Shown: positions 1,087 to 48,050 of the stretch, piece after piece
How positions within the stretch are numbered: position 1 is the stretch's first letter
How the letters are laid out: every line of letters starts with the position of its first letter
DNA from: Candidatus Nomurabacteria bacterium
GTDB lineage: Bacteria > Patescibacteriota > Minisyncoccia > Phycocordibacterales > UBA918
NCBI GenBank assembly: GCA_020632155.1
Contig: JACKGE010000002.1
Location: forward strand, 91,685 to 155,684
Direction: 5' to 3'
Length of the DNA stretch: 64,000 bases
Position numbers and translations under genes: made by a program
The notes under the pieces: model-generated
Database searches by the model: none
Told to the model about the DNA's origin: nothing
What the model saw: only the letters and a program-made list of their open reading frames with translations

Positions 1087-1098
1087 GACGTAATCTAA

Positions 1099-2664: not shown

Positions 2665-2682
2665 AACGGTTTGTGTGGGTTG

Positions 2683-3066: not shown

Positions 3067-3068
3067 GG

Positions 3069-3515: not shown

Positions 3516-3663
3516 GATTTACTTCAGTATGTTTATGAAGGAGTGCACAGGATGCCTCAAATGCAAGGCGTTTGAAAAAAATATTGTGAGGTGAACTTTG
3601 GGCGTTCAGTGAGCAATATTTTTTGAAAAACAACGCAGCAGATGAGGTATATCTGTGTGCTCC

Positions 3664-3996
<333 letters not shown>

Positions 3997-3999
3997 CTA

Positions 4000-9470: not shown

Positions 9471-9527
9471 AGTACTAGTGTATGAAAAACAACCGAGCGG
9501 CGCAAATCAATGCGCCGCTGTAACCGA

Positions 9528-9746
9528 TTAGGCTGAGATGGGGTTCGCGTTTGAGAGCAGCTTTATGTAACGCTTAACATATCGTTTGAATGGTCTTCGC
9601 GGCATGTTGAGACGTCGAGCTGTGGCAGAAATCGTCCTAATAAGCTGCTGCGGCGAATGCTTTTCGGAAACATGTTCATGATGTACTACCTCGTTTGCAC
9701 ATTCATAAACAGCAATCCAAAACCAGCTGGGCAAGGATGTCTTCAT
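9528..9746 (-). CDS. small hypothetical protein (72 aa)
   Basis: ORF in the 355-bp uvrC-uvrA spacer with a basic C-terminus and no recognisable motif; it may be non-coding. Confidence 0.3.
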   Translation of the reverse strand: MKTSLPSWFWIAVYECANEVVHHEHVSEKHSPQQLIRTISATARRLNMPRRPFKRYVKRYIKLLSNANPISA

Positions 9747-9825
9747 TTTTCCCCCTATCTGGGTTAAATGTTACGTTGAGTAGAACCTTCTGAACCCTTA
9801 GTATAGGGCAAAGCCCAAAATGACG

Positions 9826-34500: not shown

Positions 34501-34954
34501 CGTTAGAGTAGGCGTAGTTGTCGTCACCGGCACTATCACGAATATAACCGGCACCACGGCCGTATGCACTTTCGCCACTGTCAGTCGACAAAAACGTTTC
34601 AAATGTGCGACGGTTTTCGCCGCCAGTACCGGTTTCTTCGGTCCACGCGTTGTACATGACCAGATATTTACCACCTTCTGTAAGAGCCATCGTTGTACTA
34701 CCGGTGTTTAACGTAATATTACTGTTCTCAGAAACAACCGTATCCCAAAGGACATCAACTGTACTGCCGCCGTTTGGTACTGCGGTGGTATCACTTTGGT
34801 TGCGAAAGACAGAAAAATCACCGGCAGCAGCCAGTGCCCGAGCGACAAGTGAGAAGTCAAAAGCAATATTGATATGAAGGCCAGTTGCAAACACAACCGC
34901 TACCAAAAAGCCTGCTATTCCCTTTTTTGCTATACGCCAAAAACGTCCGTTCAT
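28580..34954 (-). CDS. giant secreted repeat protein (2124 aa)
   Basis: N-terminal signal/TM. A ~170-aa module recurs at least four times: it begins [HQ]Y[HQR]W[RL]NDDG-like and ends YCFR[LM]TD / YYFRLVDA. The C-terminus ends AGLYSTDVVYLAIPVF, with no LPXTG and no C-terminal TM. Confidence 0.8.
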   Translation of the reverse strand: MNGRFWRIAKKGIAGFLVAVVFATGLHINIAFDFSLVARALAAAGDFSVFRNQSDTTAVPNGGSTVDVLWDTVVSENSNITLNTGSTTMALTEGGKYLVMYNAWTEETGTGGENRRTFETFLSTDSGESAYGRGAGYIRDSAGDDNYAYSNGTAIIDATADDTLTVHVARDDTSSDNQTQLRAGVNGVSILKLKDDLDYLRLRKGTDSSDIAGTTSFTDVTWDTIDEVDTDTFGYSSGADMTLKGNTGDHFLVTYNIRIHQTANSGERQNYESVLTLGGVAIPGTRVTTYVRGGGGTYYGTLAYAGIIQKATSTNEILNVEVRQENTDDGTPPTTVIFGGETAVSIVALPDTANYISLSSASSQSVPSTAAPLDFDSEIEVDGAAFSHSNGTNPSQVQIDLDGDYLFFSNIYATRSNVASGDRDPYRIEWRLDGATTVPYGGHGSFLRGNQGSQDSFAAGSAGGLILPGLTSSQYLEITMFDEEDAADAELEAGNIALQGIELSKLFLDDVEVSATGTQTATVDIPQTSHELGGSFAIKTNSTARNITSLTFTESGTVDGTTGVNNIAVYYDLDTSFPYDCASESFSGTSTESQYGSTDTNGFSGADGISSFSEAVGISTTQTLCAYVVYDVTSSASDGQTVQVSIDDPTTDITYTGGGSIGPAVSIAPTGSVTLQNAELTQVHYQWLNDDGLEGSATSVEGAEDTPALGFANGTIRRLRTQISAEGSTSSAPVSLRLEYAAKSSTCDAATGWTDVGAGGGDWDMSDSLFLIDSTDSSDLAPASGGTTNENSTHLTPNGALLDTSSQAGALTFSTSNFLELEFAIEPTASSPQGTTYCFRMTDAGTPLRNYSVYPEGTISADITVTASGTATASINAGTSNQYLGGTFVVTRAGSDRTVTDITISEDGTADASTELSNIRLYYELDTSAPYDCASESYAGTESLFGSASSFGSANGTSTFSDSVTINSTNTLCGYVVADVDTAAANGNTVNVTIADPSNDVVVTSSSVGPSSAVDPTGSTTINAAVLTQTGYHWRNDNGDETGATSATGGTENTPLPNVARYAPYRLRFRVENTGSVSSAGTTYRLEYGTKVGTCSTVGVWQRIASGTAFTMATTSQLTEGNDTTDISPGNGGVTDGGGTFLGTNGGQREVSDETGSLTLSASQYTELEFAIMATDQSAYGTDYCFRLTDSGSALTAYTEYGELTTRERQDFFVQRKTEFISGTSRTFVAGVDYTPPASTSTAFVRITDSQLTGAGASSQGTQTAVNVTAYISDQSDLTSSFTVARPSGAANDTRVSWELVEYIGLSGSDNEMVVRDTGTVSHGTTGLVATGTAVSTVADDADVVVFITGQRSDGNQNEFPANQNTAAWDTTSNVPVFTRATTSESSITDVSYAVVEFTGVNWKVQRIEHTYSAAGVTETEPITAVGGLDKAFIHAQKRIGGDYIGLDDYGHQVWLSSLGNISFQLNSGTNQPTEQVSVAWLVENTQLNTGAMTVYHDNNESLDGNEAIEPRTTLFTFGGTLGSVSNASIFITNDSTGSGTAFPRAMLGTTVTSTTEYELYESDAGQTQNFKVSVVEWPVAQLAFTQNYFRIYADNDTLTPTDPWPVGATDLGENAELTGTDDPLAEGERVRLRMSLNVKNAAFPETSKAFKLQYGLRSGASCGAIVSWTDVGAAGSGAIWRGYNATPSDGTTLPSTVLSVSDVAATYEEENNSLVNPNAATLGDDVEYDWVVEHNGALQRSDYCFRMVESDGTLLSEYLYYPTLRTTGYTPVSGNWQWFDDETSLTPSNSLAGENIAPTGIADGDILKLRVTASEVEGAAGSNIKFALQYSEYANFSDGGTTLVATSSCTATSTWCYADGAGVDNALIDANVLSDSESCSGGSGTGCGTHNEAATTSSTFTHDANTSVEMEFTLAQAAARASAVYYFRLVDATTDDPLVASSSYPSLQIEGPSLSFSVSGLPSGTNTEGVTTDATTTPSMVNFGSLPLDTEVTAAHTLGVTTNATEGYQVLMYARSDLVSSHGGTIPAILGTNYAPLGWNSGCLASTTGCFGYHAGDDTLSGTSTRFSPTDSYAAFEPTPREVMYSSLPASDSSNIIYKVEITDEQPAGLYSTDVVYLAIPVF

Positions 34955-35024: not shown

Positions 35025-36617
35025 CTACTCGGTTGTGCTAGTTCCGGTGCTGGTTGCAGGCTCTGTGGTGCTCGCAAGCGGCTCAATGACAATGTCAAAT
35101 GGCGTAAGCTCAAAGGTAGAGGAAGCTTGATCAGAAGTGATTGTTGTAGTGGTGGCGTTGTCTGGAATCAGTGGCAGATGGCCACCAGTTGAACTGGCAC
35201 TAAGGACACTACTGGTACCGGTTACTTCTTGCATTTCTTCCTCTATGGTTTTGGTTGTTATTAACACCTTTACCTCATCCGTAGTTTGCGGCAGTGGTGC
35301 AGCCGGTTCAGGGTCACTGCCGGGAGTGGATGCAACTGGGCGAGACTCTCCGGTACGCGGATCAAAACTGCTGGTGACCACATCACCATTTTCGTACTCA
35401 GTATCGTACACGAGCATGTACCGAGCATTCTTTATTTCTCCACCAGACGGAGTATCGATGGAACGCACAGTCTGTCGTTCATGATCGTACACATAACTTT
35501 GCAATGATCCAAGGTTGGTCATTGTTTGCCAGAGAACAAAACCATTTGATACTGACGGGCTAAGATCCTGAGCCTCGTTGTTAGTGAGTGCGGTTGTGCT
35601 TGAGCCATCAAACAGTACGATCTCCCAGTCATGACCATCCCACTCTTGCCAAGCAACCAGACCGTCGTCAACGCTTGGTTCCATGCTGTTTTGTGATGGA
35701 AGCGAAAGAACAGTCTCTTTTTTATCGTTTAGGTCATACGAAACAATTTGGTACCGGCCGTTTACCAGTCGCTGCCACACCGCTGCGCTGCCACTGGGGT
35801 CAACCACCGGCTTGGTGTCATCATACGCGTTGTCGGTAAGTTGCATGACCTTGCCGTTTTTGATGAAAAATATCTCATAATCACCATCTTGAGCATCAAT
35901 GTCGGCGTAAATGTCATTTTCTGTACTGCCGAAAGCCGCTTTGGAGGCAGCATTACAATAGTACGAGCCGTCGTTCATAGAAACACACTCATTTTCTGCA
36001 AACACGATCTTGTTTTTGAGCGCTTGTTCTAGATCTGCATCAGTGAGCACAAGCGTCGTATCGTCAACTTCGTCGTCATTAGCTGTCACATCGTTTTCAT
36101 CCTCAGTCAGAGTCTCATCATCGTTGTTTGAAGTGGTCTGTTGGTCACGTACTTCAGCTGTCTGCGCGTCGCTATCAATCTCAGAATCGTCTATAGCATC
36201 ATCGCCAATTTCTGTGCTATCTGTTTGAACACTTTCATCAAGCTCGTCATTCTCTTCCTGAAGAGTTCTGTCAATCTCTTCACCCAAATCTTGGTCTGGA
36301 GTATCTTCAGTTACGGTTTCCGATATTTGTGCTACGTCAGTAGCGACTCCAGATTCTTCTGGAGACTGGTCAATTTCTTCCGTCTGTTGTTCCGGTTCAG
36401 AGTTTGCTGGTGTAATCTTTTCAGCTTGAGTCTCGGTTACAACTTCTGCTTCTGCAGTATCAGTTTCAGAAGCTAGTACGTACGAACACGGCTGTAGTAG
36501 TGTAAAAGCCAACAGCAAGAAACCTACGCTTTTTGCAGTACGGCTTTTAAATACGAAGGTATAGAGCCAAGGTAAATCCCTTAGCAATACATGTTTTTGG
36601 CTATTTTGTGGTGACAT
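35025..36617 (-). CDS. secreted acidic protein with D/E-rich low-complexity region and probable beta-propeller repeats
   Basis: N-terminal TM, then a ~150-aa D/E/T-rich tract, then W-containing repeats (LVAWQEWDGHDWEIVLFDG, GFVLWQTMTNLG) reminiscent of TolB/PD40-type blades. There is a T/S-rich C-terminus. Confidence 0.55.
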   Translation of the reverse strand: MSPQNSQKHVLLRDLPWLYTFVFKSRTAKSVGFLLLAFTLLQPCSYVLASETDTAEAEVVTETQAEKITPANSEPEQQTEEIDQSPEESGVATDVAQISETVTEDTPDQDLGEEIDRTLQEENDELDESVQTDSTEIGDDAIDDSEIDSDAQTAEVRDQQTTSNNDDETLTEDENDVTANDDEVDDTTLVLTDADLEQALKNKIVFAENECVSMNDGSYYCNAASKAAFGSTENDIYADIDAQDGDYEIFFIKNGKVMQLTDNAYDDTKPVVDPSGSAAVWQRLVNGRYQIVSYDLNDKKETVLSLPSQNSMEPSVDDGLVAWQEWDGHDWEIVLFDGSSTTALTNNEAQDLSPSVSNGFVLWQTMTNLGSLQSYVYDHERQTVRSIDTPSGGEIKNARYMLVYDTEYENGDVVTSSFDPRTGESRPVASTPGSDPEPAAPLPQTTDEVKVLITTKTIEEEMQEVTGTSSVLSASSTGGHLPLIPDNATTTTITSDQASSTFELTPFDIVIEPLASTTEPATSTGTSTTE

Positions 36618-36724: not shown

Positions 36725-37468
36725 TTATCGTCGCCACGAGTCAGCTAATATTATAGAAAAGTCAGTAAAGTTCATGCGTTTGTCCTCATTAAAATCGTAA
36801 ATGATCTTTTTGTCGGTCCAAGCAGCCATAAACTGTAAAATGTCTGTCAACGTGACCTTCCCATCGCCATTGATGTCGGTATACACGCGTATTTCCGCCG
36901 TGGCAGTAAGGACTCCGTCTTCACCTTGAGCAACGATAACAACGCTTTTCTCCCCTACTTTAGTAGCAGCGACTTCAGTCCCTGAGCCATCTCCCGCCAA
37001 AAAAGCCACGTCACTGGCGGCAAACTGCGCAATACCGGTGGCCTTGGCCACAGCATTTATGGTGACGATCCTGTGTTCTCCCAAAAAACCGCGTCGGAAC
37101 GTGCCTCCGCTTAGATGGACGACGCCATTCTCAGCGTATGGTTCAGTGGTCCAAATAGTGATGACTGATTCTCCGGTATCAATACCGGTAATGGCCACTT
37201 TGTCTTCTGGGTACTCGAGGTCGATATTAATTGCATTGACCGGAACATGTGCACCAACAAATACATCTACACTAAATGGTTTACCGGCCTCAATAGTGGC
37301 ACTTGAAAACTCCAGGCGCATGTAAGACGCGTCACTCGGCAAAATAACTGCTGCTCCTATGAGCGAGAAAGCGGTGACAATAAGCGGAAACGCGTACCGC
37401 ACCGTTCGACTACGGTTAGTGCGGCAGGAAAAGCAAAATCGATAAATGATCCGTTGGAGCCATTTCAT
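36725..37468 (-). CDS. membrane-anchored protein with cohesin-like domain and C-terminal type-I dockerin
   Basis: The dockerin duplicated Ca-binding segments are YTDINGDGKVTLTDILQFMAAW and DFNEDKRMNFTDFSIILADSW. The upstream beta-sandwich region has a cohesin-like pattern (SVDVFVGAHVPVNAINIDLEYPEDKVAITGIDTGESVITIW). Confidence 0.65.
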   Translation of the reverse strand: MKWLQRIIYRFCFSCRTNRSRTVRYAFPLIVTAFSLIGAAVILPSDASYMRLEFSSATIEAGKPFSVDVFVGAHVPVNAINIDLEYPEDKVAITGIDTGESVITIWTTEPYAENGVVHLSGGTFRRGFLGEHRIVTINAVAKATGIAQFAASDVAFLAGDGSGTEVAATKVGEKSVVIVAQGEDGVLTATAEIRVYTDINGDGKVTLTDILQFMAAWTDKKIIYDFNEDKRMNFTDFSIILADSWRR

Positions 37469-38127
37469 GAATTAAACAGCTTGGCGCTGATAGACTCTAT
37501 TTGTCTAGTGAGCACTGCTGCTGATTGACTAATTTCTTGTGCCTGAGACATGAGTGCGCGCACCGACTCGTCTGTAGGCTGTGCACCTGACAGCAATAGC
37601 TCAATGACACCTCGCTGTAATGGGACTTGGGCCTGCAACAATGCTACCTTTTGTTTTTCAAGCGATAGTAGAAGATCCCAGTCCTCCAGTGTTGTAGGAG
37701 CTGGATCAAGTGTCACAAACGACTCATGCAGTGTCACTAACGTGCGGTACGTTTCGTATGTCATAACTGTTGACTCATACATGGCAGCCTTGCGATCAGC
37801 AAAGTATGAGGCGCAAGCATCAAACAACAGGTTAAGAGTGACAAGCTCACCATGATCCAGTGAGGCAAGAGTATCAAGAGAATGATCAAATGTGTTTCGG
37901 CTTGCACTTGAGCAATCTTTCACATAACTATCAATTGACTCAGTGGCTTGGTTTTTTACCAAGAGCCTTGTCTTTTCTTGTAATTCAGCTGCCGTTACAT
38001 CGATCTTTAGTTGTAGTTCGTGTGCAGATGTTTCTTGTGAATGTTTGATGATATAACCTGCAATAAGCACAACGAGGGCTACAAATGCGAGTGCGACGGT
38101 AAGGTACTTTCTTCGGGCTGTGTGCAT
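37465..38127 (-). CDS. hypothetical bitopic protein with coiled-coil region
   Basis: 220 aa with an N-terminal TM and no motif. Its stop overlaps the downstream gene's start. Confidence 0.45.
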   Translation of the reverse strand: MHTARRKYLTVALAFVALVVLIAGYIIKHSQETSAHELQLKIDVTAAELQEKTRLLVKNQATESIDSYVKDCSSASRNTFDHSLDTLASLDHGELVTLNLLFDACASYFADRKAAMYESTVMTYETYRTLVTLHESFVTLDPAPTTLEDWDLLLSLEKQKVALLQAQVPLQRGVIELLLSGAQPTDESVRALMSQAQEISQSAAVLTRQIESISAKLFNS

Positions 38128-38137
38128 AGGCTATCTA

Positions 38138-39895
38138 TTATTCAACAATATCGTCTACTTCTTCTAATTCAGTCTTGATGCGATCGTGGGCGCTCGTGAG
38201 CGACTTGCTCAGAGAAACGATAAGGTGCTCTTCCGCTTTTGTGAGTTTTTTGGTTTTGCGCGACTTTTCTAGCGCTTGCTTTTCAGCATCCATGAGCTTA
38301 TGGAGAGTGACAAACTCACGTTCAAGAATATCCAACGCTTCTTTGGATTCACGAACCACTGTAGTACGAATAGTTCGAACCCGTGCCAAGAAATAAATGA
38401 CTGCCAAAAAGAGCAAGAGTACTATGGCTAGCAGTGGTACCAATACTGACAAAATACTTACGACCAAATTTCCAATGCGAAGATATCCTGGTTGTTGGAC
38501 AGCAATGCGAACTGTTTCAGACGTCTCGCTTTGCGCGCCATATGCATCGACAGCACGAGCCTTGATCTCATAGACACCTTGCGAGAGTGTGCCCTCAGGG
38601 ATAAACGTAAAGACACCCGCATCATCAGCGACAACCTCATATTCAGCCGGCTGCGCACCTACCTTTGTGAGTGTTATATACACAGTAGCCCCGCTTCGTG
38701 TAATACCTTTAATGACTGGTATGACCTCTTCGTTTATTTGACTTGGGTAGTCAGTGAACTGCGGTTTGTCAAATGACTCAACTGAAAACGAACGCGTGGC
38801 AACCAAACTATTACCGGCTGCATCAAACGCCTCAATAACAAGTGTATGATGACCAGGAGCCAGACTAGTCAGTGTAAGGGTACTAGTACTACTTGCTGGA
38901 ACAAACTCATATGGCTCAGCCCCATCGAGCTGCACCATGAAACGAATAACACCGGACCCCTCGTCCTCGGTAATTAGATTGAACTCGGGTTCTGGGTTAG
39001 CTCGGTCGGCGCCCTCAATCTCTGCAATATCAAATCGACTCGGTGCTACCGTATCCACCGCTAAGCGATAGTGAGTGACTCTACCCCATCCCTCATCATT
39101 CTTAAATTGAATATGAAAATACTGTACTCCTTCATCCAGATCGTTTAGTTCAATAGAGCTAGGGGGTGTGTCATATACCTTTGTAGGGATAGAGCCGCTT
39201 TTGTCATCGAGTAAAGTACGAATTGCTGTCACCCCTGCCGGCAACGTCCACGATAGCTGCGCTGTTTGCTTTGCATACCAACCAGCCGGGTCTGGATGAG
39301 TATTTGAGGACACCTGCGGCGCTGCCGGTGTGTTTGGTGGCGCTATGTATTCAATGACTTCTGGTTCTGCGGCCACTTCAGCAGCAGCGATCGTGTACGA
39401 ACCACTATTCATGGCAGTAAGCACGTTGGTACCACGTCCGTCAGCCGCCAAGACCGAACCATTACTGAAGGTGACTTTGGCCGTTCCTGCAGCCTTAGCT
39501 CTAAAGGTTACTGAAAGCACTGTGCCGGCAGAGCCGGTGTACCCAGTCGGTGAACCACCACCAAAACTGATCGTACCAGCGCTATTTGAAAAAGTTGGTT
39601 CAACCGCCCAGAGACTGAATATTGAGCCTTTACTTAGTGAAACCACCGAAAGTGTGCTTGGATCGAACTTTAGCGTGCCTTCTGCAGCGTTAATAGCTTG
39701 TCCTGAAGTATTAACCACTATCCGCGTAGTGAATGTGCCACCGGCTGTATAGACACCAGTACTTGGGCTGGCTGAAAGTGTGGCCGCCAGTACCGTAGTG
39801 AAACTCACCAAGAAAAATACACTGCCGAAAAATACAGCGAGGACAGTCTTATAGAACTTCAGTGTTAGGTTTTGTGCTGTCATACAATCATTCAT
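38138..39895 (-). CDS. membrane-anchored cohesin-like surface protein with cytoplasmic coiled-coil tail
   Basis: Signal/TM, then a cohesin-like domain (ATLSASPSTGVYTAGGTFTTRIVVNTSGQAINAAEGTLKFDPSTLSVVSLSKGSIFSLWAVEP...), then Ig/FN3-like domains. A TM follows (ILSVLVPLLAIVLLLFLAVIYFLA), then a charged coiled-coil C-terminus. Confidence 0.6.
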   Translation of the reverse strand: MNDCMTAQNLTLKFYKTVLAVFFGSVFFLVSFTTVLAATLSASPSTGVYTAGGTFTTRIVVNTSGQAINAAEGTLKFDPSTLSVVSLSKGSIFSLWAVEPTFSNSAGTISFGGGSPTGYTGSAGTVLSVTFRAKAAGTAKVTFSNGSVLAADGRGTNVLTAMNSGSYTIAAAEVAAEPEVIEYIAPPNTPAAPQVSSNTHPDPAGWYAKQTAQLSWTLPAGVTAIRTLLDDKSGSIPTKVYDTPPSSIELNDLDEGVQYFHIQFKNDEGWGRVTHYRLAVDTVAPSRFDIAEIEGADRANPEPEFNLITEDEGSGVIRFMVQLDGAEPYEFVPASSTSTLTLTSLAPGHHTLVIEAFDAAGNSLVATRSFSVESFDKPQFTDYPSQINEEVIPVIKGITRSGATVYITLTKVGAQPAEYEVVADDAGVFTFIPEGTLSQGVYEIKARAVDAYGAQSETSETVRIAVQQPGYLRIGNLVVSILSVLVPLLAIVLLLFLAVIYFLARVRTIRTTVVRESKEALDILEREFVTLHKLMDAEKQALEKSRKTKKLTKAEEHLIVSLSKSLTSAHDRIKTELEEVDDIVE

Positions 39896-40901
39896 TTTTT
39901 ATTTCTTCAGCTTGCAAACGCTTTAGTGTGCGACGATAGTAAAACAGAGCAAACAAAGAGACCAAAATAATGATACCTCCTGCAATGAACAAACCGGCGC
40001 TAACAAAGTCTCTTTCGCTGTATCCGCGCAACTCTTCACTTGGTACCAATACAGCGACATACTCATTACCAGCTTTATCAACCGCCTTAACGCGGATAGT
40101 GCTATTGAGCGACTGGTCCTTCAACAGATACGGGCTCTTACCAGTGATCCACGGTGCATCTGCGCGACCCCAAGCAAACAGGTCAAACTGATCGAGTGGC
40201 TCCTCTATGAGTTCATAGTGGTCAAGGCCGGACTGTTTGTCGGTAGTATTAAAAGTTATGAAGTAACGGCCGCCGTAGATGGACTTGTCGTTACTAAGGG
40301 TGATGTTAAAACTCTGTGGTGGTAACTCGTCAGCCACAACCCGCTGCTGCCAGTCATCAATCGGCTGCGGCCGTGGTCGTTTTCCTACCAAAAGATCTGC
40401 GCCGAGGGCCGAAAGCGGGGCTTGTGTGCCAAATCCATCATTTAAGTACACTGCCGTTTCCGGACCAAACGCAACTGTTGCAAGGCCGTCATTGCTACCC
40501 GCGCCTACTGAAAAACCTGGCGCTTGAAACATAAGTTCGAACAGCACGTTGGTGAGTCTTGGATCACCATCAATTCGTCCGCAGTAACCATTCGGGATCC
40601 CGCCTGCAAAAGTCACCTGATGATTAACGCTATCGATTGTCGGTTCTTCTACCCAGATCGGTACGATCGAGTTGCCACGCGCAATATCAGCCAGTACAAC
40701 ATTCGCTTCGTATGTGATAACACCACTAATGACGTTTACACACTCACCGTCGTCGGTATCAAGGCGCACCGCAACCGCACGGGTATCTCCTGGATACACT
40801 TCTAGTTCTTGCGGCTCCATGTAGAGTGTGGCTGCATACACGGGCACAACTCCAAAAAACAATCCAGCAAAGACCACTGCTTTTACTGCTGAGCGAAGCA
40901 T
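39888..40901 (-). CDS. cohesin-like surface protein with C-terminal TM anchor
   Basis: The likely start is MLRSAVKAVVFAGLFFGVVPVYA (signal). The cohesin-like domain is ATLYMEPQELEVYPGDTRAVAVRLDTDDGECVNVISGVITYEANVVLADIARGNSIVPIWVEEP. The C-terminal anchor is TM LFIAGGIIILVSLFALFYY + RRTLKRLQAEEIKNE, and there is an 8-nt overlap with the downstream gene. Confidence 0.55.
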   Translation of the reverse strand: MLRSAVKAVVFAGLFFGVVPVYAATLYMEPQELEVYPGDTRAVAVRLDTDDGECVNVISGVITYEANVVLADIARGNSIVPIWVEEPTIDSVNHQVTFAGGIPNGYCGRIDGDPRLTNVLFELMFQAPGFSVGAGSNDGLATVAFGPETAVYLNDGFGTQAPLSALGADLLVGKRPRPQPIDDWQQRVVADELPPQSFNITLSNDKSIYGGRYFITFNTTDKQSGLDHYELIEEPLDQFDLFAWGRADAPWITGKSPYLLKDQSLNSTIRVKAVDKAGNEYVAVLVPSEELRGYSERDFVSAGLFIAGGIIILVSLFALFYYRRTLKRLQAEEIKNE

Positions 40902-41125
40902 AATAATTGAATTATACGTTACTAGGCCCGTAGTAAACGTCTGCAAATGTGCACAAAGAAAACCGGATAAACGAAAGCACAAATCTTTTGTAAGTTAGTT
41001 AGAACTGTCTCTGTGACCAAACACGGTGGCCGTTGTGACGCCCTCTATTTTCAGGATTGTGGTTGTAAGCCGGCCCACCGCGTTAGAAGGTTGCGTATTT
41101 TGATAATTTTAATTCCCAAAATACG

Positions 41126-41160
41126 AAAAACCCCTCTCGTGGTGGGAGATAGGGTTTTCG
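41126..41160 (-). terminator. rho-independent terminator of the 387-aa secreted-protein gene
   Basis: AAAACCC(C)TCTC-gtggtgg-GAGA(TA)GGGTTTT; on the minus strand it is followed by TTTTTCGTATTTTGGG. Confidence 0.55.
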
Positions 41161-41173
41161 TTGCTCAAAGCTG

Positions 41174-42337
41174 TTAGAACGTTGGTGTTGCGATGTAGGT
41201 CAGTGTAGTTGAGTAGTCATCTGCTGCCTCTTGCAAAGCAGAGACCTCTACCTGATAGGCAACGGTTGTAGAACCGATGTTATCAGTAGTATTGTCTGCA
41301 ACACTATTGTGCGAGAAGATCTCACGCGGTGTAGTGCTAGCAGCTACCCAACATCCTCCAGTAAGTGCCGCAGCACAAGACTGGAAAGTACCACCACCGT
41401 CATCATGATCATCGCTTGAGGTCAAACCCCAGTGTCCGTAGGTTGCCGGTGAACCGACAACTGCAGACGGCGATGCCCAGTCAGACGGAGTGTTGGTGTA
41501 CGCCCCATCAGCAAATCCATCAATGACAGCACCAGTAGCTGAAGACAAGTCTCCATCTTGCTCAACAGTAACCACAAATCCGTAATTGGCGTTTGTGAGC
41601 ACGTTAAGCTGCTGACCTACCGTCACGACCTCATTTTGACCGAGTGTACCAAATGGTATCTCAGTTGCTGAAGAAGTGGCTGTAGTTGTTGTACCGTTGA
41701 TGTCGATACCAGTAGTGGCAAAACCACTGACGGTAAACTCAAACACAGTATCAACAGACGCTGTCACGGTAACGTTGTCGAGGATAGCCACGACTGCGGT
41801 ACCGCTATCATTGTTTGCTCCATCACCAGAAGTAATGTCAATATCATACGAATTGGCAGTACCTGGATTAGACATTTGGTTGGTACCTCCATCGGCGTTT
41901 GTACCGATCTTGATCGTAACGGTAGCGTTGGCGCCGATAGTACCAGCTGCTGAAGTAAACGTAAGGTCTTGCCCAGCAATACCTACGCCCCAGGTTGCTC
42001 CTGAAGGTGAACCCGCAAGGGTAACGTCCGAACCATTGACCTCAAGATCAATGTCGGCTACACCGACAGAACCAAATGAAAATCCTGCTGGAAATGAAAC
42101 AACGATCGTCTCACCCGCCTCGACGCCAGCAGAACCAGACGGAATGACGTACTGGATCTCGTGATCAGTCGCTGCACTGATATCAGAATCAGTGAGCGTA
42201 TCTTTCACGCTAGTGACGCGAGCTGCTTCGGCCGAGTTAAAGACCGGCAGGCCGAGCGACCACAGCAAAACTGTGATGCTGGCAATAAGTGAGATAGCTT
42301 GGAGCATTCGAACCGACGTTGGAGCGGTGCGAATCAT
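41174..42337 (-). CDS. secreted protein (387 aa) sharing C-terminal module with the 2124-aa protein
   Basis: The signal peptide is MIRTAPTSVRMLQAISLIASITVLLWSLGLPVFNSAEA. It is T/S/G/A-rich and beta-rich, and ends ...TPREIFSHNS...DYSTTLTYIATPTF (compare ...TPREVMYSS...VVYLAIPVF in the 2124-aa protein). Confidence 0.6.
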   Translation of the reverse strand: MIRTAPTSVRMLQAISLIASITVLLWSLGLPVFNSAEAARVTSVKDTLTDSDISAATDHEIQYVIPSGSAGVEAGETIVVSFPAGFSFGSVGVADIDLEVNGSDVTLAGSPSGATWGVGIAGQDLTFTSAAGTIGANATVTIKIGTNADGGTNQMSNPGTANSYDIDITSGDGANNDSGTAVVAILDNVTVTASVDTVFEFTVSGFATTGIDINGTTTTATSSATEIPFGTLGQNEVVTVGQQLNVLTNANYGFVVTVEQDGDLSSATGAVIDGFADGAYTNTPSDWASPSAVVGSPATYGHWGLTSSDDHDDGGGTFQSCAAALTGGCWVAASTTPREIFSHNSVADNTTDNIGSTTVAYQVEVSALQEAADDYSTTLTYIATPTF

Positions 42338-42487
42338 ATAAGCTCTCGTTGTATTAACCTACCACGTGCGCACAAGGCGCAAGAGCATCAACGCGTGGTG
42401 TGCGTCTTTTGGGTCAAGTCTCCACTCCCGACCCCGATGCTAGCGCAGTAAGTATATCTGCGTTCATAACACTCGGCTGCTAGTGTC

Positions 42488-42585
42488 TTCCAGCACCACT
42501 TTTTACAGCACGTCTACACATCCACACCGCCTATACAATACAGACAGCGAAACTAACAAACGTAACTGCAAAAAGTGGTGCTGGA
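42488..42585. repeat. 19-bp inverted repeat (1 mismatch) flanking a ~58-bp core in the 393-bp leader region
   Basis: CCAGCACCACTTTTTACAG at 42488-42506 pairs with CTGCAAAAAGTGGTGCTGG at 42567-42585. This may be a structured RNA in the 5'-UTR of the 387-aa gene or a MITE-like remnant. Confidence 0.4.
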
Positions 42586-42707
42586 CCAAGTGGTCTAAAG
42601 GCCACCTTTTGAAGCAGATACACTTTTATTGTAGCCTACTCACACAATGAAATGCGTATTCGTATTGTGAACAACATGTCGAAAGTCGTGTTTTTTAAAA
42701 CCAATGA

Positions 42708-42734
42708 ATAAAACCCTCCTAGAGAGGGTTTTAT
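42708..42734 (-). terminator. hairpin terminator overlapping the stop codon of the dockerin-protein gene
   Basis: ATAAAACCCTC-ctaga-GAGGGTTTTAT is a perfect 11-bp stem; a U-rich tract follows on the minus strand. Confidence 0.5.
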
Positions 42735-43846
42735 CCAGTCCAATTAAAGAGAAGGATCGAAAAGTCTTCAAGACCAACGTTGCCATTACCGTTTATGTCA
42801 GCTGGTGGATCAGAATCACCACCGCTTGTTTGCCACCAAAATATCAAAATAGAAAAGTCTATCAAGTTAATGCGACCATCCCGATTAAGGTCAGAAGGTG
42901 TCCCTGGTGAGCCGTCAATACCAACAAACAGCTGTAGTGAGCTACTATACGAACTTTGTGTCACTAAAGAGCCGCTACCACTCTGGTATCGGGCTTTTAG
43001 CACGTACTCAGCGGAAGAAAGTCCTGTGGTGTCATACGCAATCGACCAGTCACCTTGACTGTTGGCAGTATTCTCACCGATTTTGTTGCTACCTAAGTAA
43101 ACTGATACTGTGCGGCTCGGCGGTGCCTGACCGGAAATAGTAAGGATAGCACCGGGGTCGATAGTGGCGTCATTTACCTTGATGGTTGGTGGTAGGTACA
43201 CATCGTTTACATTGGTCACCGCTCCTTGGGTCACATCAAAGGTTGTTGTATACGTTATTGAGCGAGTACCAAACGCGTCCGTGGACCAAAAACCGATTGT
43301 GGCTGGTCCCGGGTCTGCGTTCATAGAAAATTCAAACTCACCGTTACTGGCAGCACGCACGGTACCAACCGAGTCACCGTCAAGCAAAATGTTAACGGTC
43401 CGCCCTGGGTATGCGATACCACTGACTCGCACCACGGTATCACCAAGATCTTCGTTTGAACCCCCTGAGGAGCGTGAACCGCCACCGCCGCTACCGCCAC
43501 CGCCGCTACCAGCAGGCTCAATGGTGCAGTCAGCGCCACAAAAGTCTCCGTCGTCGTTGTTACCATCGTCACATTCTTCCCCATGAACGGTCTGTAAAAC
43601 CCCGTCACCGCAGTACGGGCCAAAGCGGCATGTTACATCACACTGCCTACCGACAATGGTTGTGCTGTACTCACCCGTCTCGCCGGGCACATCACATTCC
43701 TCGGGAGCGGTAACAAGTGAGTCGCCGCAGTTGCTGATGCTAACTGTTGTGGTTGCGATCGATTGTGCAAACACTCCAACGCCGCCACTGACACATAATC
43801 CAAACAACGCAATACAGGCGAGTAGATACTTGTATAGCGCAGGCAT
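42731..43846 (-). CDS. secreted Cys-rich / Ig-like protein with C-terminal type-I dockerin
   Basis: Signal peptide, then a Cys-rich region (CGDSLVTAPEECDVPGE...CDVTCRFGPYCGDGVLQTVHGEECDDGNNDDGDFCGADC), then a Gly-Ser linker, then a beta domain. The dockerin segments are DLNRDGRINLIDFSILIFWW and DINGNGNVGLEDFSILLFNW. Confidence 0.65.
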   Translation of the reverse strand: MPALYKYLLACIALFGLCVSGGVGVFAQSIATTTVSISNCGDSLVTAPEECDVPGETGEYSTTIVGRQCDVTCRFGPYCGDGVLQTVHGEECDDGNNDDGDFCGADCTIEPAGSGGGGSGGGGSRSSGGSNEDLGDTVVRVSGIAYPGRTVNILLDGDSVGTVRAASNGEFEFSMNADPGPATIGFWSTDAFGTRSITYTTTFDVTQGAVTNVNDVYLPPTIKVNDATIDPGAILTISGQAPPSRTVSVYLGSNKIGENTANSQGDWSIAYDTTGLSSAEYVLKARYQSGSGSLVTQSSYSSSLQLFVGIDGSPGTPSDLNRDGRINLIDFSILIFWWQTSGGDSDPPADINGNGNVGLEDFSILLFNWTG

Positions 43847-43849
43847 AAG

Positions 43850-44824
43850 CTATGTCTTTTTTAGTGCACGACTAGATCTACGGGCATAAAGACCAGCTCC
43901 AATTAGCAAAAGCAGCGCAAGAAGCGGCAAAATGATCGAGGCCTTATGAGATAGTGAAAGGCCCATAAAACCGTAGCCCGCAACTTGTAAACTACCATAT
44001 GGCAACACGCTAAGGGTTAACTCTCCTTCTTGTTTGATATCATCACCATTTTTGATCTGGTAACGAGCGATATAACTACCCGCTTTGAGGTGGACCGGGA
44101 GTTCTGCAATGACATCGTCAGTAGCAAACGGTTCCACTCTTTTGATGCGATTTGTATGGGAAACTTCTTCAAGGAGCACTTTACCGGTAGCGTCATAAAT
44201 ATGGAATGATACTTCCGATGGTGCGACGTTGACGTTACCAGTGTTCTCAAGGGTCATTCCAAAACGGATCTTACCTGGAAAATATAGCCAGCCAACTTTA
44301 TGACCCTCGTTAAGATCCGGTAAACTGATCTTGCGAACTTTAAAGTCTTTGATCTCTTTATCGATCACGGTTAAGTCGATGTCAACCTGTGCTCCAAGAG
44401 AGATACTGACCGCACCAGCACTCACCTGATCATCCGGTGCTGCCGTTTTGATACGGATCACACCTTCATAACGCTTGAAGTCTACGCCATCTGGTACCAC
44501 TACACGTACCGTCATTGGCACTTTGGTCTCACCTTGTGGTAAAGGGATCGAGTCTCCTTCTACAATTGAGATCCAATCAGCAAACTCGGGAGCGTCAACG
44601 GTAATGAGCGCTTTAAGCGGCTTGTTTGGATCGCTACGCACCATTAATATCTGCTGCTCATAAACAGAGTTCCGCGTCAGGCTGGTATTACGCACATACG
44701 GGGGTGTAATACCAAAACCAGCATATACGTTCTGTGCCCCAAGCACAGTACAGAATATGCTGAAAAGAAAAAGTGCTAGCGTTTTCCTAAGCATGAAAAG
44801 TTGCGCCTCCGCGCTTGTTCTCAA
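43850..44824 (-). CDS. cell-surface protein, DUF916/DUF3324-like architecture (paralogue of 27571-28575)
   Basis: 324 aa with a signal peptide, two beta domains, and a C-terminal TM ILPLLALLLLIGAGLYA + RRSSRALKKT. Confidence 0.55.
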   Translation of the reverse strand: MRTSAEAQLFMLRKTLALFLFSIFCTVLGAQNVYAGFGITPPYVRNTSLTRNSVYEQQILMVRSDPNKPLKALITVDAPEFADWISIVEGDSIPLPQGETKVPMTVRVVVPDGVDFKRYEGVIRIKTAAPDDQVSAGAVSISLGAQVDIDLTVIDKEIKDFKVRKISLPDLNEGHKVGWLYFPGKIRFGMTLENTGNVNVAPSEVSFHIYDATGKVLLEEVSHTNRIKRVEPFATDDVIAELPVHLKAGSYIARYQIKNGDDIKQEGELTLSVLPYGSLQVAGYGFMGLSLSHKASIILPLLALLLLIGAGLYARRSSRALKKT

Positions 44825-44848
44825 TTATCAAAAAAAAACCGCAAAAAC

Positions 44849-44883
44849 GCAATAACCGCCGTTGGGATAACGGCGGTTATTGC
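44849..44883 (-). terminator. strong rho-independent terminator of the 616-aa gene
   Basis: Perfect 15-bp stem GCAATAACCGCCGTT-gggat-AACGGCGGTTATTGC; on the minus strand it is followed by GTTTTTGCGGTTTTTTTTTTGATAA. Confidence 0.75.
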
Positions 44884-44900
44884 GACAAACGAGCTGCGGT

Positions 44901-46751
44901 TTAGAGGCCCCATTCAGCTGGCTCACTAGCTACAGCTGTGAAAGTGTTTTCACCCGTATAGAGGCCAGCCAACGTGATCGTACCCGGAACTGCAATACCC
45001 CAGTAGGTTATGCCCGTAGCTTGAGTAGACGTGGCTTGAGATTTCAATACGTTAAGCTCCAGTTCTTGCGGAGTTGTTGAGGAAAGATCGGTACCTGATC
45101 CGTATGACAAGGCGGAGGTTCCAAACTCTTGTGAAAAATCAGGAATAGTTGAAGTGGCTGAAGATGTACACGGTGTCACGCCAGAATACGTTGGACACAT
45201 AGATGCTCCCGACAGCTCTTGGTCAAGACCAACGTTACCGGTTGCTGCAACAGTAGTAGTGGCAGATAACGTACCAGTGTCGGTGCCCGGTTCGAGCTCA
45301 CCGTACGGAATGGTGGCAGTGTTAAGAGCCATAGCGAGCAGGCTGTTGAGCTCTTGACCGGTCGAACCAACGCTGTACGTACCAGTAGCAAAGTCATCAT
45401 CAATTGGGCTTACTGCCGCTACCCAGTTTTCAGTGTTGTAGTACGAAACTGTTGAAGTGCCGTCTGTTGAGTCAGCAATGTACCAAAGTGGGAATGTACA
45501 ATCGTATATTTGAGTAGTGTCAGATGGACCAGTACAGCTGGTCGAAGAGGCGGTACACGAAAGGTTCCAAATAGCTGAACTGACCCCACTTGGGTAACAG
45601 TTGTTAGCATTGTACGAACCAGACGTACCATCACAGGTTGATGAACCAACACCGGAGCGGAAAACAGACAGTATGTATCCGGTAATCTCATCGCCAGCAG
45701 AGGCATTCTCACAACTGTTATTGTCAGTAGCAGTAAACTGAAGTGTAAAACCGGTAGTCTCCCCTGCTTCCTGTGTAAGTGTAATATCGGAACCACCATT
45801 AAGCGTTATGGCTGCTGGTGACACAGACGGAGCTACGTTACTGACAGACAGCGTTGAGTCTGAACCTTGGGTAGCACCAGTTGCCTCATGTCCATGTTCG
45901 TCAACAATGTATCCATACGCAGTATAGTCTTGGTCTTGGGTCGGGATAACTATTGTATATGAAGCCGTTTGGTCTCCGGTTGATAGTGTCGAGGTGGCTA
46001 GTGTGCCGCCCGCACCACACTGATTGGTGCTGGTGTTGTAATCTGGATCGTTACAAACAACAAGCTGCAGTGTGTCAGCCGTGTCTATAACGTCAGCGTC
46101 AGAGGAGCTGGCGTAGAAATTAACTACCGAACCCGGTCCAGCCGGTGAATCATCATAGAACAACGTGAACGTTGGTCGATGATTTACATAAAATGGCGAG
46201 GAGTTTGTGGCGTTTAAACCAGTACTGTAGGTTGAGTTACAACGCGCATTAGTGTCGATAGCGTCACAGATCCAAGCCACCCAATCATTCTCTTCCACAA
46301 AAGCTTCTGTAGTGGTTGTGGCGGCACTAGCCTGTACGCCACTGGCTGTGCTGGCAGAGACAGCCCATAGTGTTGCTCCGGCACCACACTGCGGATCGAC
46401 AACGCTCGTTCCCGGCGTTGGTGTAGCATTCGTACTACAAATGAGAAGCTGGTAGTTCTCACTGTTTGAGTCCGTCGCCGTACCGACCCATGTTACGGTG
46501 TCACCCGAGTTAGTTGGAGTTGAGGTGGAGGATTCCGTTTGCTCGTAAGCAAGCTCCGTCCATTGTGGCGGGGTGTTCAGCACCGTTACTGAAGTAGTAG
46601 CGGTACTTTGGGCCTCAACGGTTTTGAATTCTTTACTACCGAGGTTTAGCAAAAAAATGAACGCAAAAACGAGCACTCCCATGAGCGTCGTCAAAACCGT
46701 CACCTTTCCGGCTGTGCTAAGCGGCAGCTTGTGGCTCTCGTTGTACAACAT
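44901..46751 (-). CDS. secreted protein (616 aa) sharing an N-terminal repeat-type module and a ~300-aa C-terminal module with the giant 4232-aa protein
   Basis: N-terminal TM/signal. The C-terminal region (AAITLNGGSDITL...DNNSCENAS...WYIADSTDGTSTVSYYNTENW...GITYWGIAVPGTITLAGLYTGENTFTAV) is collinear with the giant protein's C-terminus (GAVTLNGGNDIDL...DNNSCYIS...YYFADPTDSGSTYDGQEW...EVYWGIAIPFGTASNPHTGNNTFYAI). Confidence 0.75.
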   Translation of the reverse strand: MLYNESHKLPLSTAGKVTVLTTLMGVLVFAFIFLLNLGSKEFKTVEAQSTATTSVTVLNTPPQWTELAYEQTESSTSTPTNSGDTVTWVGTATDSNSENYQLLICSTNATPTPGTSVVDPQCGAGATLWAVSASTASGVQASAATTTTEAFVEENDWVAWICDAIDTNARCNSTYSTGLNATNSSPFYVNHRPTFTLFYDDSPAGPGSVVNFYASSSDADVIDTADTLQLVVCNDPDYNTSTNQCGAGGTLATSTLSTGDQTASYTIVIPTQDQDYTAYGYIVDEHGHEATGATQGSDSTLSVSNVAPSVSPAAITLNGGSDITLTQEAGETTGFTLQFTATDNNSCENASAGDEITGYILSVFRSGVGSSTCDGTSGSYNANNCYPSGVSSAIWNLSCTASSTSCTGPSDTTQIYDCTFPLWYIADSTDGTSTVSYYNTENWVAAVSPIDDDFATGTYSVGSTGQELNSLLAMALNTATIPYGELEPGTDTGTLSATTTVAATGNVGLDQELSGASMCPTYSGVTPCTSSATSTIPDFSQEFGTSALSYGSGTDLSSTTPQELELNVLKSQATSTQATGITYWGIAVPGTITLAGLYTGENTFTAVASEPAEWGL

Positions 46752-46835: not shown

Positions 46836-48044
46836 CTATTCATATCGAATGGCATCAAGCGGATTTAGTGTCGCAGCTCGCCGAGCCGGGAAAATACCCG
46901 TCAAATATCCCACTCCGGCGGAAAACATGGCGATAAAAAGCAAGAACATAAAAGGAAATGAGAACAATTTGACCGCTTGCCCACCGAACTGGCTGGCCAC
47001 CAAGTTAAGGAGGAGATTGATGGTACTACCCAGCACCACACCCATTATGATCCCCGAAAGGCCTCCCAAAAATCCCACCACGATGGATTCCGAGACGAAC
47101 AACCATTTGATGTCACTTGGTGAGGCACCGATAGTACGCATGATTCCGATCTCTTTGGTACGTTCAAGCAAGGTAACGGTCATAGTATTGAACATACCAA
47201 TAGCTGACACCACAAGCGCAATACCACCAAAGACTGCCAAGACTGCCTGCACACCTTGGAAGATCTTAGACGCTTGTTCTACTGTCTTTGAAAGCGCTGT
47301 CACGCGATACCCCGCTTCAATAAGCTGCTCTTCAACAGCGCCTAAAAACTCATTGGTATCAACACGGACCTGAATACGTTCGTATTCTTCAATGCCAACA
47401 TGGGAACGCAATTCCGGTAGCATCATAAGGGCGTTGAGCACACCCTCTTCTTTGGTAATACCACGCACGGTGTACTCTTTGTCGATCAATACCTCAGAAA
47501 CGTCACCAGTACCGTCATCAAGTGGAACCAACAAGCGAAATTTAACCTTTTGTCCGACAAAGGAAGCGGCGTCTTCTATACCAAAGAGTTTAAGTACTGC
47601 CGGAGAGAGCATAACAGTATTTTGATCATCAAGGTCTTCGTCGGTAAACACCTCACCAGCCGAAGCAGTGACACCGGCGTAGCGCAAATAAGCCGGTTCA
47701 GCACCCTGAATGAATACATTACCGGTAAGACCCTTATATGTAATAAGGGCTGGGAAACGAGCTAATGGAGCGGCATCAAGTACGTGCTCTTTTTGTTCAA
47801 ACTGTACTACCGTCTCTGATGTGAGTCTAAGATTTTGCGCGCCGGTCGCTGACACTCCAAGCGAAAGCAGTGTCTCACCAAACACGATCTGTTCGAGAAT
47901 GATCTGCTGCAAGCCAAAACCAAGCCCTACGAGGACCACCACCGCTCCAGTACCAACACCCATACCCAAAATAGTAAGCCATGTTCGGAGCGGATTGGTT
48001 TTGAACATTCGAGTCGAAAGTTGTGCGAGGTCTCGGGTACGCAT
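46836..48044 (-). CDS. ABC transporter permease, FtsX/MacB type (N-terminal TM, periplasmic MacB_PCD-like domain, 3 C-terminal TM)
   Basis: 402 aa. The topology and C-terminal FtsX-like TM bundle (IGIMRTIGASPSDIKWLFVSESIVVGFLGGLSGIIMGV...) match MacB/LolC-type permeases. Confidence 0.75.
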   Translation of the reverse strand: MRTRDLAQLSTRMFKTNPLRTWLTILGMGVGTGAVVVLVGLGFGLQQIILEQIVFGETLLSLGVSATGAQNLRLTSETVVQFEQKEHVLDAAPLARFPALITYKGLTGNVFIQGAEPAYLRYAGVTASAGEVFTDEDLDDQNTVMLSPAVLKLFGIEDAASFVGQKVKFRLLVPLDDGTGDVSEVLIDKEYTVRGITKEEGVLNALMMLPELRSHVGIEEYERIQVRVDTNEFLGAVEEQLIEAGYRVTALSKTVEQASKIFQGVQAVLAVFGGIALVVSAIGMFNTMTVTLLERTKEIGIMRTIGASPSDIKWLFVSESIVVGFLGGLSGIIMGVVLGSTINLLLNLVASQFGGQAVKLFSFPFMFLLFIAMFSAGVGYLTGIFPARRAATLNPLDAIRYE

Positions 48045-48050
48045 ACTGAA

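Follow-up and report, generated by a model that had tools for sequence, protein, structure and literature searches.

The window analyzed here is a 64-kb stretch of a “Candidatus Nomurabacteria” contig (JACKGE010000002.1) in which all large open reading frames (ORFs) lie on the minus strand. It contains a block of six ORFs, encoding proteins of 371, 387, 364, 585, 220, and 247 amino acids (aa), whose coordinates agree exactly with those given in the original prediction, an earlier reading of this DNA which proposed that the block encodes a non-cellulosomal cohesin-dockerin network with membrane-anchored cohesins. The proteins that carry these modules, and the small protein encoded among them, are as follows.

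42731..43846, minus strand: 371-aa secreted protein (Pfam, NCBIfam, and family alignment)
42734..42901, minus strand: predicted dockerin module of the 371-aa protein (residues ~316 to 371), with the two Ca-loop segments DLNRDGRINLID and DINGNGNVGLED
39888..40982, minus strand: 364-aa protein with a cohesin-like domain (BLASTP, hhalign, hydrophobicity, and alignment)
38138..39895, minus strand: 585-aa protein with a cohesin domain (Pfam, NCBIfam, and homologue alignment)
37465..38127, minus strand: 220-aa protein, syntenic in Kaiser-/Nomurabacteria-type loci
36725..37468, minus strand: 247-aa protein with cohesin-like and dockerin modules (Pfam, hhalign, alignment, and hydrophobicity)

The genes encoding the 364-, 585-, 220-, and 247-aa proteins overlap or are separated by gaps of ≤10 nucleotides, and the 220-aa gene is translationally coupled between the 585-aa and 247-aa genes; its product has an N-terminal transmembrane segment (residues 6 to 30) and a helical extracytoplasmic domain. 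The 371-aa protein consists of a signal peptide, a conserved N-terminal beta-strand-like motif (ATTTVSISNCG), a Cys-rich repeat (DUF4215/myxo_disulf_rpt), a Gly-rich linker, two Ig-like domains (Big_6/GxPGS-like), and a C-terminal dockerin ending in NWTG. Its Pfam matches outside the dockerin are to DUF4215 (33 bits) and Big_6 (36.9 bits), and among NCBIfam models TIGR02232 matches above its cutoff (37.9 bits) and NF058592 below it (39.2 bits; cutoff, 45).

The 585-aa protein has a signal peptide, a cohesin (residues 38 to 172; window positions 39380 to 39784), three Ig/FN3-like domains of the Big_13 (45.7 bits in Pfam) and OmpL47 types, a hydrophobic segment at residues 471 to 510 with the transmembrane helix at ~476 to 503, and a cytoplasmic tail (residues ~504 to 585). 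The tail is charged and conserved and contains a nearly invariant SRKTKKLTKAE motif; Pfam and NCBIfam scans found no signaling domain in it. The 364-aa protein has a signal peptide, a cohesin-like domain (residues ~50 to 200; 40383 to 40835), one Ig-like domain, a C-terminal hydrophobic transmembrane segment (residues 325 to 350), and a short basic tail. The start codons of both genes have probably been misplaced by the longest-ORF rule (40901-40982 and 39883-39895). Orthologue alignments suggest that the true start of the 364-aa protein is probably M28 at 40901, giving ~337 aa, and the public gene model for the 585-aa protein begins at M5, four codons later (581 aa). The hydrophobic segments of these two proteins bear out the C-terminal membrane anchors assigned to them in the original prediction, which overlooked a third anchor. 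The 247-aa protein has an N-terminal hydrophobic segment (residues 25 to 47) preceded by a conserved cytoplasmic TVRYxFP motif and followed by a cohesin-like domain (residues ~48 to 180; 36929 to 37327), a linker, and a dockerin (residues 196 to 247; 36728 to 36883). All three cohesin carriers are thus predicted to be membrane bound, the 585- and 364-aa proteins C-terminally and the 247-aa protein N-terminally.

Several lines of evidence identify the dockerins. First, Pfam Dockerin_1 (PF00404; gathering score, 22.9) matches the 371-aa protein at 27.2 bits (residues 318 to 365) and the 247-aa protein at 31.6 bits (residues 196 to 240). Second, a dockerin is expected to have two tandem EF-hand-like loops, each followed by a helix, in which positions 1, 3, 5, 9, and 12 are acidic or amide residues, and the loop pattern is recognizable in both sequences, which have a pair of 12-residue Ca-loop segments each. 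In alignments of 38 and 40 orthologues of the two dockerin families, positions 1, 5, and 12 are nearly invariant as D (36 to 40 sequences), with N/D at position 5 of the second 371-aa segment. N or D predominates at position 3, whereas position 9, an N in the first segment of the 371-aa protein, is polar or variable in the other segments. In the 247-aa protein of the window, Lys replaces Gly at position 6 of segment 2. Third, a profile of the 371-aa family matches solved dockerins in the PDB (2y3n_B, E = 9.7e-6; 5nrm_B, 1daq, and 2mte, E of ~9e-4), the hidden Markov model (HMM) of this family scores 113.6 bits at the 371-aa module, and the dockerin is the best-conserved portion of the family alignment. 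With the 247-aa family profile, EF-hand proteins outrank dockerins (best dockerin, E = 0.0085); the dockerin call is kept despite this ranking because the Pfam score is above threshold and the segment pattern fits. The two duplicated dockerins of the original prediction are therefore retained.

Cohesin (PF00963; gathering score, 24.1) matches residues 50 to 169 of the 585-aa protein at 39.5 bits. For the 364- and 247-aa proteins, Pfam makes no Cohesin call in the N-terminal domain, so that it recovers one of the three cohesins and both dockerins of the original prediction. The other two cohesins are supported by comparison with the first: BLASTP relates the 364-aa to the 585-aa protein at E = 6e-10, the 247-aa to the 585-aa protein at E = 2e-8, and the remaining pair at E = 3e-4, and in hhalign comparisons of family profiles built from syntenic orthologues, the 364-aa family matches the 585-aa family at 99.9% (E = 2.4e-33) over the cohesin and the next Ig domain, and the 247-aa family matches at 98.9% (E = 1.7e-17). 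On these alignments both N-terminal domains are paralogues of the 585-aa cohesin, and the 364-aa protein is a truncated 585-aa paralogue (cohesin, Ig domain, and transmembrane segment). The 247-aa protein combines a cohesin with a dockerin, as had been claimed. Searches of PDB sequences with the 585-aa protein and its family profile returned cohesins only marginally (E = 0.3 to 0.9).

A six-frame search of the whole 64-kb window with the family HMMs yielded exactly three cohesins and two dockerins, with no further module of either kind, and each carrier has one cohesin. No glycoside hydrolase or carbohydrate-binding module (CBM) was found among the scanned proteins of the window, in agreement with the original statement that this is not a cellulosome; a cellulosome was also considered here and rejected, as there are neither carbohydrate-active enzymes nor CBMs nor a multicohesin scaffoldin. 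Judged by sequence, the cohesin and dockerin modules of this locus are genuine and non-cellulosomal.

Homologous modules need not pair. The cohesins could be Ig-like spacers and the dockerins Ca-binding, EF-hand-like stabilizing tails, a reading to which the EF-hand ranking of the 247-aa family C terminus, the weak reach of the cohesin profile toward solved cohesins (E of ~0.3), and the dependence of the cohesin assignment on sequence comparison all lend something. Against it stand the scores of both Pfam families above their curated thresholds, the match of the 371-aa profile to several solved dockerins, and the degree of conservation of the dockerin relative to the rest of the 371-aa protein. 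The persistent adjacency of dockerin and cohesin genes at 30 to 40% protein identity, which is documented below, would also be hard to explain without a shared function, and we give this reading only a slender chance.

The block is widespread. A public protein 100% identical to the 585-aa protein is annotated as a hypothetical protein of a “Candidatus Nomurabacteria” metagenome-assembled genome (MAG), and the database holds >1,122 homologues, the best 120 of which share 55 to 64% identity over the whole ~580 residues, cytoplasmic tail included; most of these 120 have a precomputed PF00963 match. The most distant loci show ~35% identity. In a scan of one genome per GTDB species, at least 582 relatives were confirmed across Patescibacteria, including Kaiser-, Nomura-, Wolfe-, Colwell-, Portnoy-, Jorgensen-, Nealson-, and Doudnabacteria and others, with the reservation that the organism labels of many MAGs are unreliable. 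Identity along the entire length, tail included, gives the 585-aa protein the look of a central component of a machine, not of a variable scaffold for adhesins.

Gene order was compared in ~25 loci with full flanks and core gene counts in 54 to 59 informative loci drawn from these species-level relatives. The 585-type gene has a 364-type cohesin ORF just upstream in 58 of 59 loci, and in 52 of 54 there is a 371-type dockerin gene ≤6 kb upstream. Since the dockerin/cohesin adjacency is kept at 30 to 40% protein identity, it argues that the modules are cognate partners, and it is the best available evidence that dockerins and cohesins cooperate. One locus (L056) has a 364-type ORF (positions 8400 to 9905) apparently fused to an N-terminal 23S-rRNA-IVP/four-helix-bundle (Avd-like) domain; ORF calling has probably joined two genes here.

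In a mirror-tree comparison of distance matrices, the 371-aa dockerin correlated more strongly with the 364-aa cohesin (r = 0.89; partial, 0.78; n = 58) than with the 585-aa cohesin (0.79; partial, 0.55), and the 247-aa dockerin correlated with the 585-aa cohesin (0.60; partial, 0.40; n = 28). These values hint weakly at a pairing of the 371-aa dockerin with the 364-aa cohesin and of the 247-aa dockerin with the 585-aa cohesin, and they can be no more than a hint because shared phylogeny and rate differences confound such correlations.

In most of the ~25 loci with full flanks the order is fn3 protein, ATP-binding cassette (ABC) ATPase, MacB/FtsX permease, 616, 324, 371, 387, 364, 585, 220, 247, 530, 2124, and 334 (numbers being the lengths of the window's proteins), and a few of these loci lack individual members in tblastn searches. 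In distant lineages the flanks differ and the core block is retained. The neighbors in the window are as follows.

46836..49373, minus strand: MacB-type ABC transporter, permease (402 aa) and ATPase (440 aa) (Pfam)
44901..46751, minus strand: 616-aa secreted Cys-rich beta protein (syntenic)
44848..44884, minus strand: second terminator-like hairpin, 3′ of the 616-aa gene
43850..44824, minus strand: 324-aa protein (AlphaFold2 model and Foldseek), whose gene is paired with the 371-aa dockerin gene in a unit of two
42705..42737, minus strand: terminator-like hairpin, 15-bp stem and T-rich tract, overlapping the 371-aa stop codon
41174..42337, minus strand: 387-aa two-domain Ig-like secreted protein, putatively a divergent Pam-pilin-like subunit
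35025..36617, minus strand: 530-aa protein whose N-terminal half is acidic, with weak signals of a TolB-like beta-propeller (syntenic)
28580..34954, minus strand: 2,124-aa giant secreted protein (syntenic)
27571..28575, minus strand: 334-aa protein (hhalign against the 324-aa family and iterated HMM)

Both hairpins are long and perfect and are followed by a T-rich tract. Together they bracket the 324-aa and 371-aa genes, which suggests a separate two-gene transcript for a chaperone-like protein and a dockerin protein.

Comparison of these neighbors with a recently described system is informative. Pam pili are specific to the Candidate Phyla Radiation (CPR) and are built from Ig-like pilins of two domains each, which are linked through donor-strand exchange (Troman et al. 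2026, bioRxiv 10.64898/2026.03.03.709456). The Pam chaperones, PamC and PamD, are PapD/FimC-like and retain a transmembrane helix at the C terminus, and PamR, a two-domain transmembrane protein, is the proposed tether, its N-terminal strand being inserted into the last pilin; ATP synthase genes are conserved neighbors of the pam operons (bioRxiv 10.64898/2026.03.03.709456). The lineages covered in that preprint are Saccharimonadia and Microgenomatia (bioRxiv 10.64898/2026.03.03.709456).

AlphaFold2 models of the 324- and 387-aa proteins were built on alignments of database homologues. The 324-aa model (predicted local distance difference test [pLDDT], 84) has an N-terminal signal/transmembrane helix, two tandem beta-sandwich domains, and a C-terminal transmembrane helix (residues 291 to 323). 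Foldseek searches of the PDB matched it to WxLIP of Enterococcus faecium (9i25_C/9i1y), FimC, PapD, DraB, and RbmA with E values of 1e-8 to 1e-6, those for FimC, PapD, and DraB being ~1e-7 to 1e-6; TM-scores are low (0.2 to 0.43) because the interdomain angle differs. As modeled, the protein would thus combine a PapD/FimC-like fold with a retained C-terminal transmembrane helix, the pair of features that marks the Pam chaperones. A Pfam scan of the 324-aa family gave no consistent family. An iterated HMM search located a 324-like ORF immediately upstream of the dockerin gene in 43 of the 59 loci, distant lineages included. The 334-aa protein repeats the layout of the 324-aa protein, with a signal peptide, beta domains, a C-terminal transmembrane segment (residues 265 to 298), and a cytoplasmic tail; it is also found by the iterated HMM and matches the 324-aa family weakly in hhalign (68%, E = 4.9e-5). 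As a weak 324-aa paralogue, it raises the possibility that the locus encodes a PamC/PamD-like pair.

The 387-aa protein is divided into an N-domain (residues 44 to 185) and a C-domain (residues 199 to 387), and its model (pLDDT, 86) has two beta domains at residues 44 to 185 and 199 to 385. NF058581 (CPR_Pam_pilin_C of NCBIfam; curated cutoff, 55 bits) matches 27 of 33 members of the 387-aa family at E ≤ 0.01, the best at 1.2e-44, and the last ~170 residues of the 2,124-aa protein (window positions ~28583 to 29095) are homologous to the 387-aa C-domain (HMM E = 4.8e-21). A profile of the 387-aa family had no match among PDB sequences. In three loci (L047, L052, and L081), Pam pilins scoring 80 to 157 bits, above the cutoff, are encoded immediately upstream of a block in which a chaperone-like ORF of ~320 to 355 aa (iterated HMM) is followed by the gene for a dockerin protein and then by those for a short and a long cohesin protein. 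The order in L056 is pilin, WxLIP_PGBD-like protein, Big_6 plus Dockerin, cohesin, and cohesin plus Big_13, and the 324-aa orthologue of this locus matches Pfam WxLIP_PGBD at 24.1 bits, under the threshold of 27.3. Paralogues of the 387-aa family share contigs (P0246 and P0274 on one of 1.08 Mb; P0248 and P0259 on one of 270 kb), and one paralogue is on a contig equal in length (194,332 bp) to that with the window's 585-aa protein; this multiplicity, to which P0242 also contributes, resembles that of PamA/PamB/PamE.

The 616-aa protein has no Pfam or NCBIfam match, and it was rejected as a pilin paralogue, since hhalign comparison with the 387-aa family found no homology outside the signal peptide region. 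Its mature N terminus, directly after the signal peptide, shares the motif ATTT(L/V)T(V/L) with the 371-aa protein (46600 to 46640 in the 616-aa gene and 43740 to 43775 in the 371-aa gene), the form in the 371-aa family being ATTT(L/V)x(L/I)SICGN. The signal peptides of the 616-, 387-, and 2,124-aa proteins are unusually long and end in (V/A)EA(Q/A). These likenesses of motif and of signal peptide may reflect a shared recognition or donor-strand element.

The ABC transporter permease matches MacB_PCD (71 bits) and FtsX (66.4 bits), and the ATPase matches ABC_tran (113.4 bits), as expected for a MacB-type (type VII) transporter. In the ATPase (48051 to 49373), ABC_tran covers residues 26 to 174, and a conserved C-terminal extension of ~200 to 260 aa has no family match. 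The pair is ~80% identical and fixed in position in Kaiser-/Nomurabacteria-type loci. An alternative reading is an envelope-organizing or signaling complex, unrelated to any fiber, in which the 585-, 364-, and 247-aa proteins, connected by cohesin-dockerin contacts, would position wall or S-layer components or signal through the 585-aa tail, perhaps acting with the MacB/FtsX-type transporter as FtsEX does with extracytoplasmic partners. Near-universal presence and high conservation in Paceibacteria, the invariant cytoplasmic motif, the syntenic and strongly conserved transporter, and the coupling of a transmembrane/helical 220-aa protein inside the block would all suit such a function. Yet the transporter pair is unlinked to the dockerin/cohesin/cohesin trio in more distant lineages, the tail has no signaling domain in the scans described above, and the surrounding genes encode chaperone-like proteins and beta-rich subunits that are secreted, instead of wall enzymes; we consider this reading improbable.

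Other features of the window may be recorded here. A protein with fn3 and purple-acid-phosphatase-N domains (49622 to 51121) is syntenic with the ABC genes and 73 to 83% identical in most loci. Upstream of it, on the minus strand, is a giant ORF of 4,232 aa (51227 to 63925) with DUF2341 as its sole Pfam match; the family HMMs found neither a dockerin nor a Pam C-domain in it. Genes for the gamma, alpha, and A subunits of an F1Fo ATP synthase (184 to 4818, minus strand) are found ~23 kb downstream of the locus, in the same orientation. Outside the locus, an 866-aa protein (13864 to 16464, minus strand) with Ig-like Big_13, Big_7, and Big_6 domains, a further large surface protein, adjoins a histidine kinase (12506 to 13858).

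We propose, with a probability of roughly one-half, that the cohesins and dockerins form a membrane docking platform belonging to a Pam-like, Patescibacteria-specific fiber locus. A more specific version, which we put forward tentatively and regard as somewhat unlikely, is that a pilus assembled by donor-strand exchange has the cohesin-dockerin pair as its membrane anchor and terminator, with the 371-aa protein capping its proximal end. The original prediction of a modular scaffold displaying the 371-aa protein at the cell surface stands in part: this protein is the obvious dockerin cargo of membrane-bound cohesins, and a free-standing network finds no support in single cohesins, two dockerins, and a syntenic fiber locus.

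A number of observations weigh against a docking platform for a Pam-like fiber. The window's own 387-aa protein scores 18.3 bits against the NF058581 cutoff of 55, over its last 40 residues only, and the fold of its model matches generic Ig-like pilins and adhesins, with no Pam structure among the PDB matches. The fold of the 324-aa protein fits a chaperone, an anchor (RbmA/PamR-like), or a WxLIP-like role alike, and the iterated HMM for Ig-like chaperone domains, by which its relatives were found, may have drifted. The donor-strand role of the 371-aa N terminus is conjectured from a sequence motif, the predicted pairing draws on gene linkage and a weak distance correlation, and the words cohesin, dockerin, ABC, MacB, and FtsX do not occur in the Pam preprint (bioRxiv 10.64898/2026.03.03.709456). 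Lastly, in many distant loci that have the trio, no Pam-like pilin was detected within 10 kb. Searches with the Pam families in the DNA upstream of it in Wolfe-, Colwell-, and Portnoybacteria and “Microgenomatus” loci gave one weak match (L055, 16.4 bits), so a link to a pilus is not shown in all lineages, and the trio may work independently of a fiber.

This last observation favors a stand-alone surface display, in which the membrane cohesins would present the 371-aa protein as an adhesin or host-binding factor, perhaps with dockerin proteins encoded elsewhere, the pilus genes being adjacent because both serve host attachment. The position of the 585-aa cohesin distal to three Ig-like domains would suit the outer face of the wall, the Ig and Cys-rich modules of the 371-aa protein are adhesin-like, and three cohesins to two dockerins would leave a free socket. 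Set against these points, the conservation of the 585-aa protein over its full length, tail included, is extreme and atypical for adhesin scaffolds, and each carrier has just one cohesin. Operonic linkage to a PapD/WxLIP-like membrane protein is tight in most lineages, and above-cutoff Pam pilins are encoded immediately upstream in three loci (L047, L052, and L081). On balance, display without a fiber appears fairly unlikely.

If the modules do form a docking platform for a fiber, the following sequence of events can be envisaged. Once exported by the Sec pathway, the 371-aa protein would stay attached to the cell surface through insertion of its Ca-bound dockerin into a cohesin anchored in the membrane. 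The 247-aa protein might dock onto another cohesin and present its own, giving a small hetero-oligomeric base. By analogy with PamR, the N-terminal strand of the 371-aa protein could complete the last pilin subunit, and the cohesin-dockerin joint would then tether a fiber of 387-aa and 2,124-aa subunits, handled by the 324- and 334-aa proteins, to the membrane of a cell that has no usher, sortase, or outer membrane. More speculatively, the 585-aa tail and the MacB-type transporter may couple the platform to the cytoplasm.

The proposed platform has partial counterparts in several known systems. The Pam system (NF058581 and NF058579) is also CPR specific and without an usher, with subunits that have a Pam pilin C-domain and are, putatively in the present locus, two-domain and Ig-like, two-domain PapD-like proteins with a C-terminal transmembrane helix, a component with an N-terminal strand that tethers or would tether to the membrane, and ATP synthase genes nearby. 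The present locus differs in that its pilin-like proteins score under the NCBIfam cutoff and in that the putative tether is a dockerin protein plus membrane cohesins rather than one transmembrane protein (PamR).

Chaperone-usher (Pap/Fim) and sortase pili share with the locus a need for basal anchoring, and the modeled PapD/FimC-like fold of the 324-aa protein and shaft-pilin-like Ig domains of the 387-aa protein extend the likeness. Unlike those systems, the locus has no usher, sortase, or LPXTG motif, there is no outer membrane, and the chaperone-like proteins are predicted to be membrane anchored. In the WxL clusters of Firmicutes, WxLIP is composed of DUF916 and DUF3324 (PMC10599100; PDB 9i1y and 9i25). 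These clusters resemble the locus in placing a membrane-anchored two-domain Ig-like protein beside secreted proteins, both small and giant, with a common C-terminal domain, and the 324-aa model matches WxLIP; in contrast, the locus has no WxL motif domains, and WxL clusters have neither cohesin nor dockerin.

Cohesins and dockerins outside cellulosomes have precedents. The anchoring scaffoldins of cellulosomes (Clostridium thermocellum OlpB/SdbA with the type II dockerin of CipA) fasten a secreted dockerin protein through a cell-bound cohesin, as is proposed here, whereas in the window there is no multicohesin scaffoldin, CBM, or dockerin-bearing glycoside hydrolase, anchoring would be by transmembrane helices instead of S-layer homology domains or sortase, and a conserved cytoplasmic tail is present. 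Non-cellulosomal examples include the Archaeoglobus fulgidus cohesin and the glycosidase complexes of Clostridium perfringens, and such modules were reportedly surveyed by Peer, Smith, Bayer, Lamed, and Borovok in 2009; cohesin structures from A. fulgidus (2xdh) and C. perfringens are among the PDB entries. Like those modules, the ones described here occur singly in proteins that belong to no cellulosome, have duplicated Ca-binding dockerin segments, and include one protein with both modules, as is said of A. fulgidus. They differ in forming a fixed operonic block in a pilus-like locus of hundreds of Patescibacteria species, with all cohesin carriers predicted to be integral membrane proteins and with no enzyme cargo.

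Non-cellulosomal cohesins and dockerins are therefore known, and Pam pili are newly described. A search of the literature on cohesins and dockerins in CPR/Patescibacteria found nothing on the present system, and we found no record of the combination of a fixed dockerin/cohesin/cohesin block, cohesins that are all membrane borne, and a Pam-like locus across hundreds of Patescibacteria species.

Patescibacteria make up a very large and mostly uncultured part of bacterial diversity, are host attached, and have a surface machinery that is almost entirely unannotated. The recurrence of the block in hundreds of species points to a core envelope device of these organisms rather than an oddity of a single genome. 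If the modules tether a Pam-type fiber or a basal protein, the Pam system would extend to Paceibacteria, the anchoring logic would be supplied for a pilus without usher, sortase, or outer membrane, and the cohesin-dockerin interaction would gain a role far from polysaccharide degradation. Should the more specific, pilus-anchoring version be true, this would be the first time that cohesin and dockerin are seen to serve as a structural joint in a pilus machine, and pili would have a third means of anchoring beside ushers and sortases.

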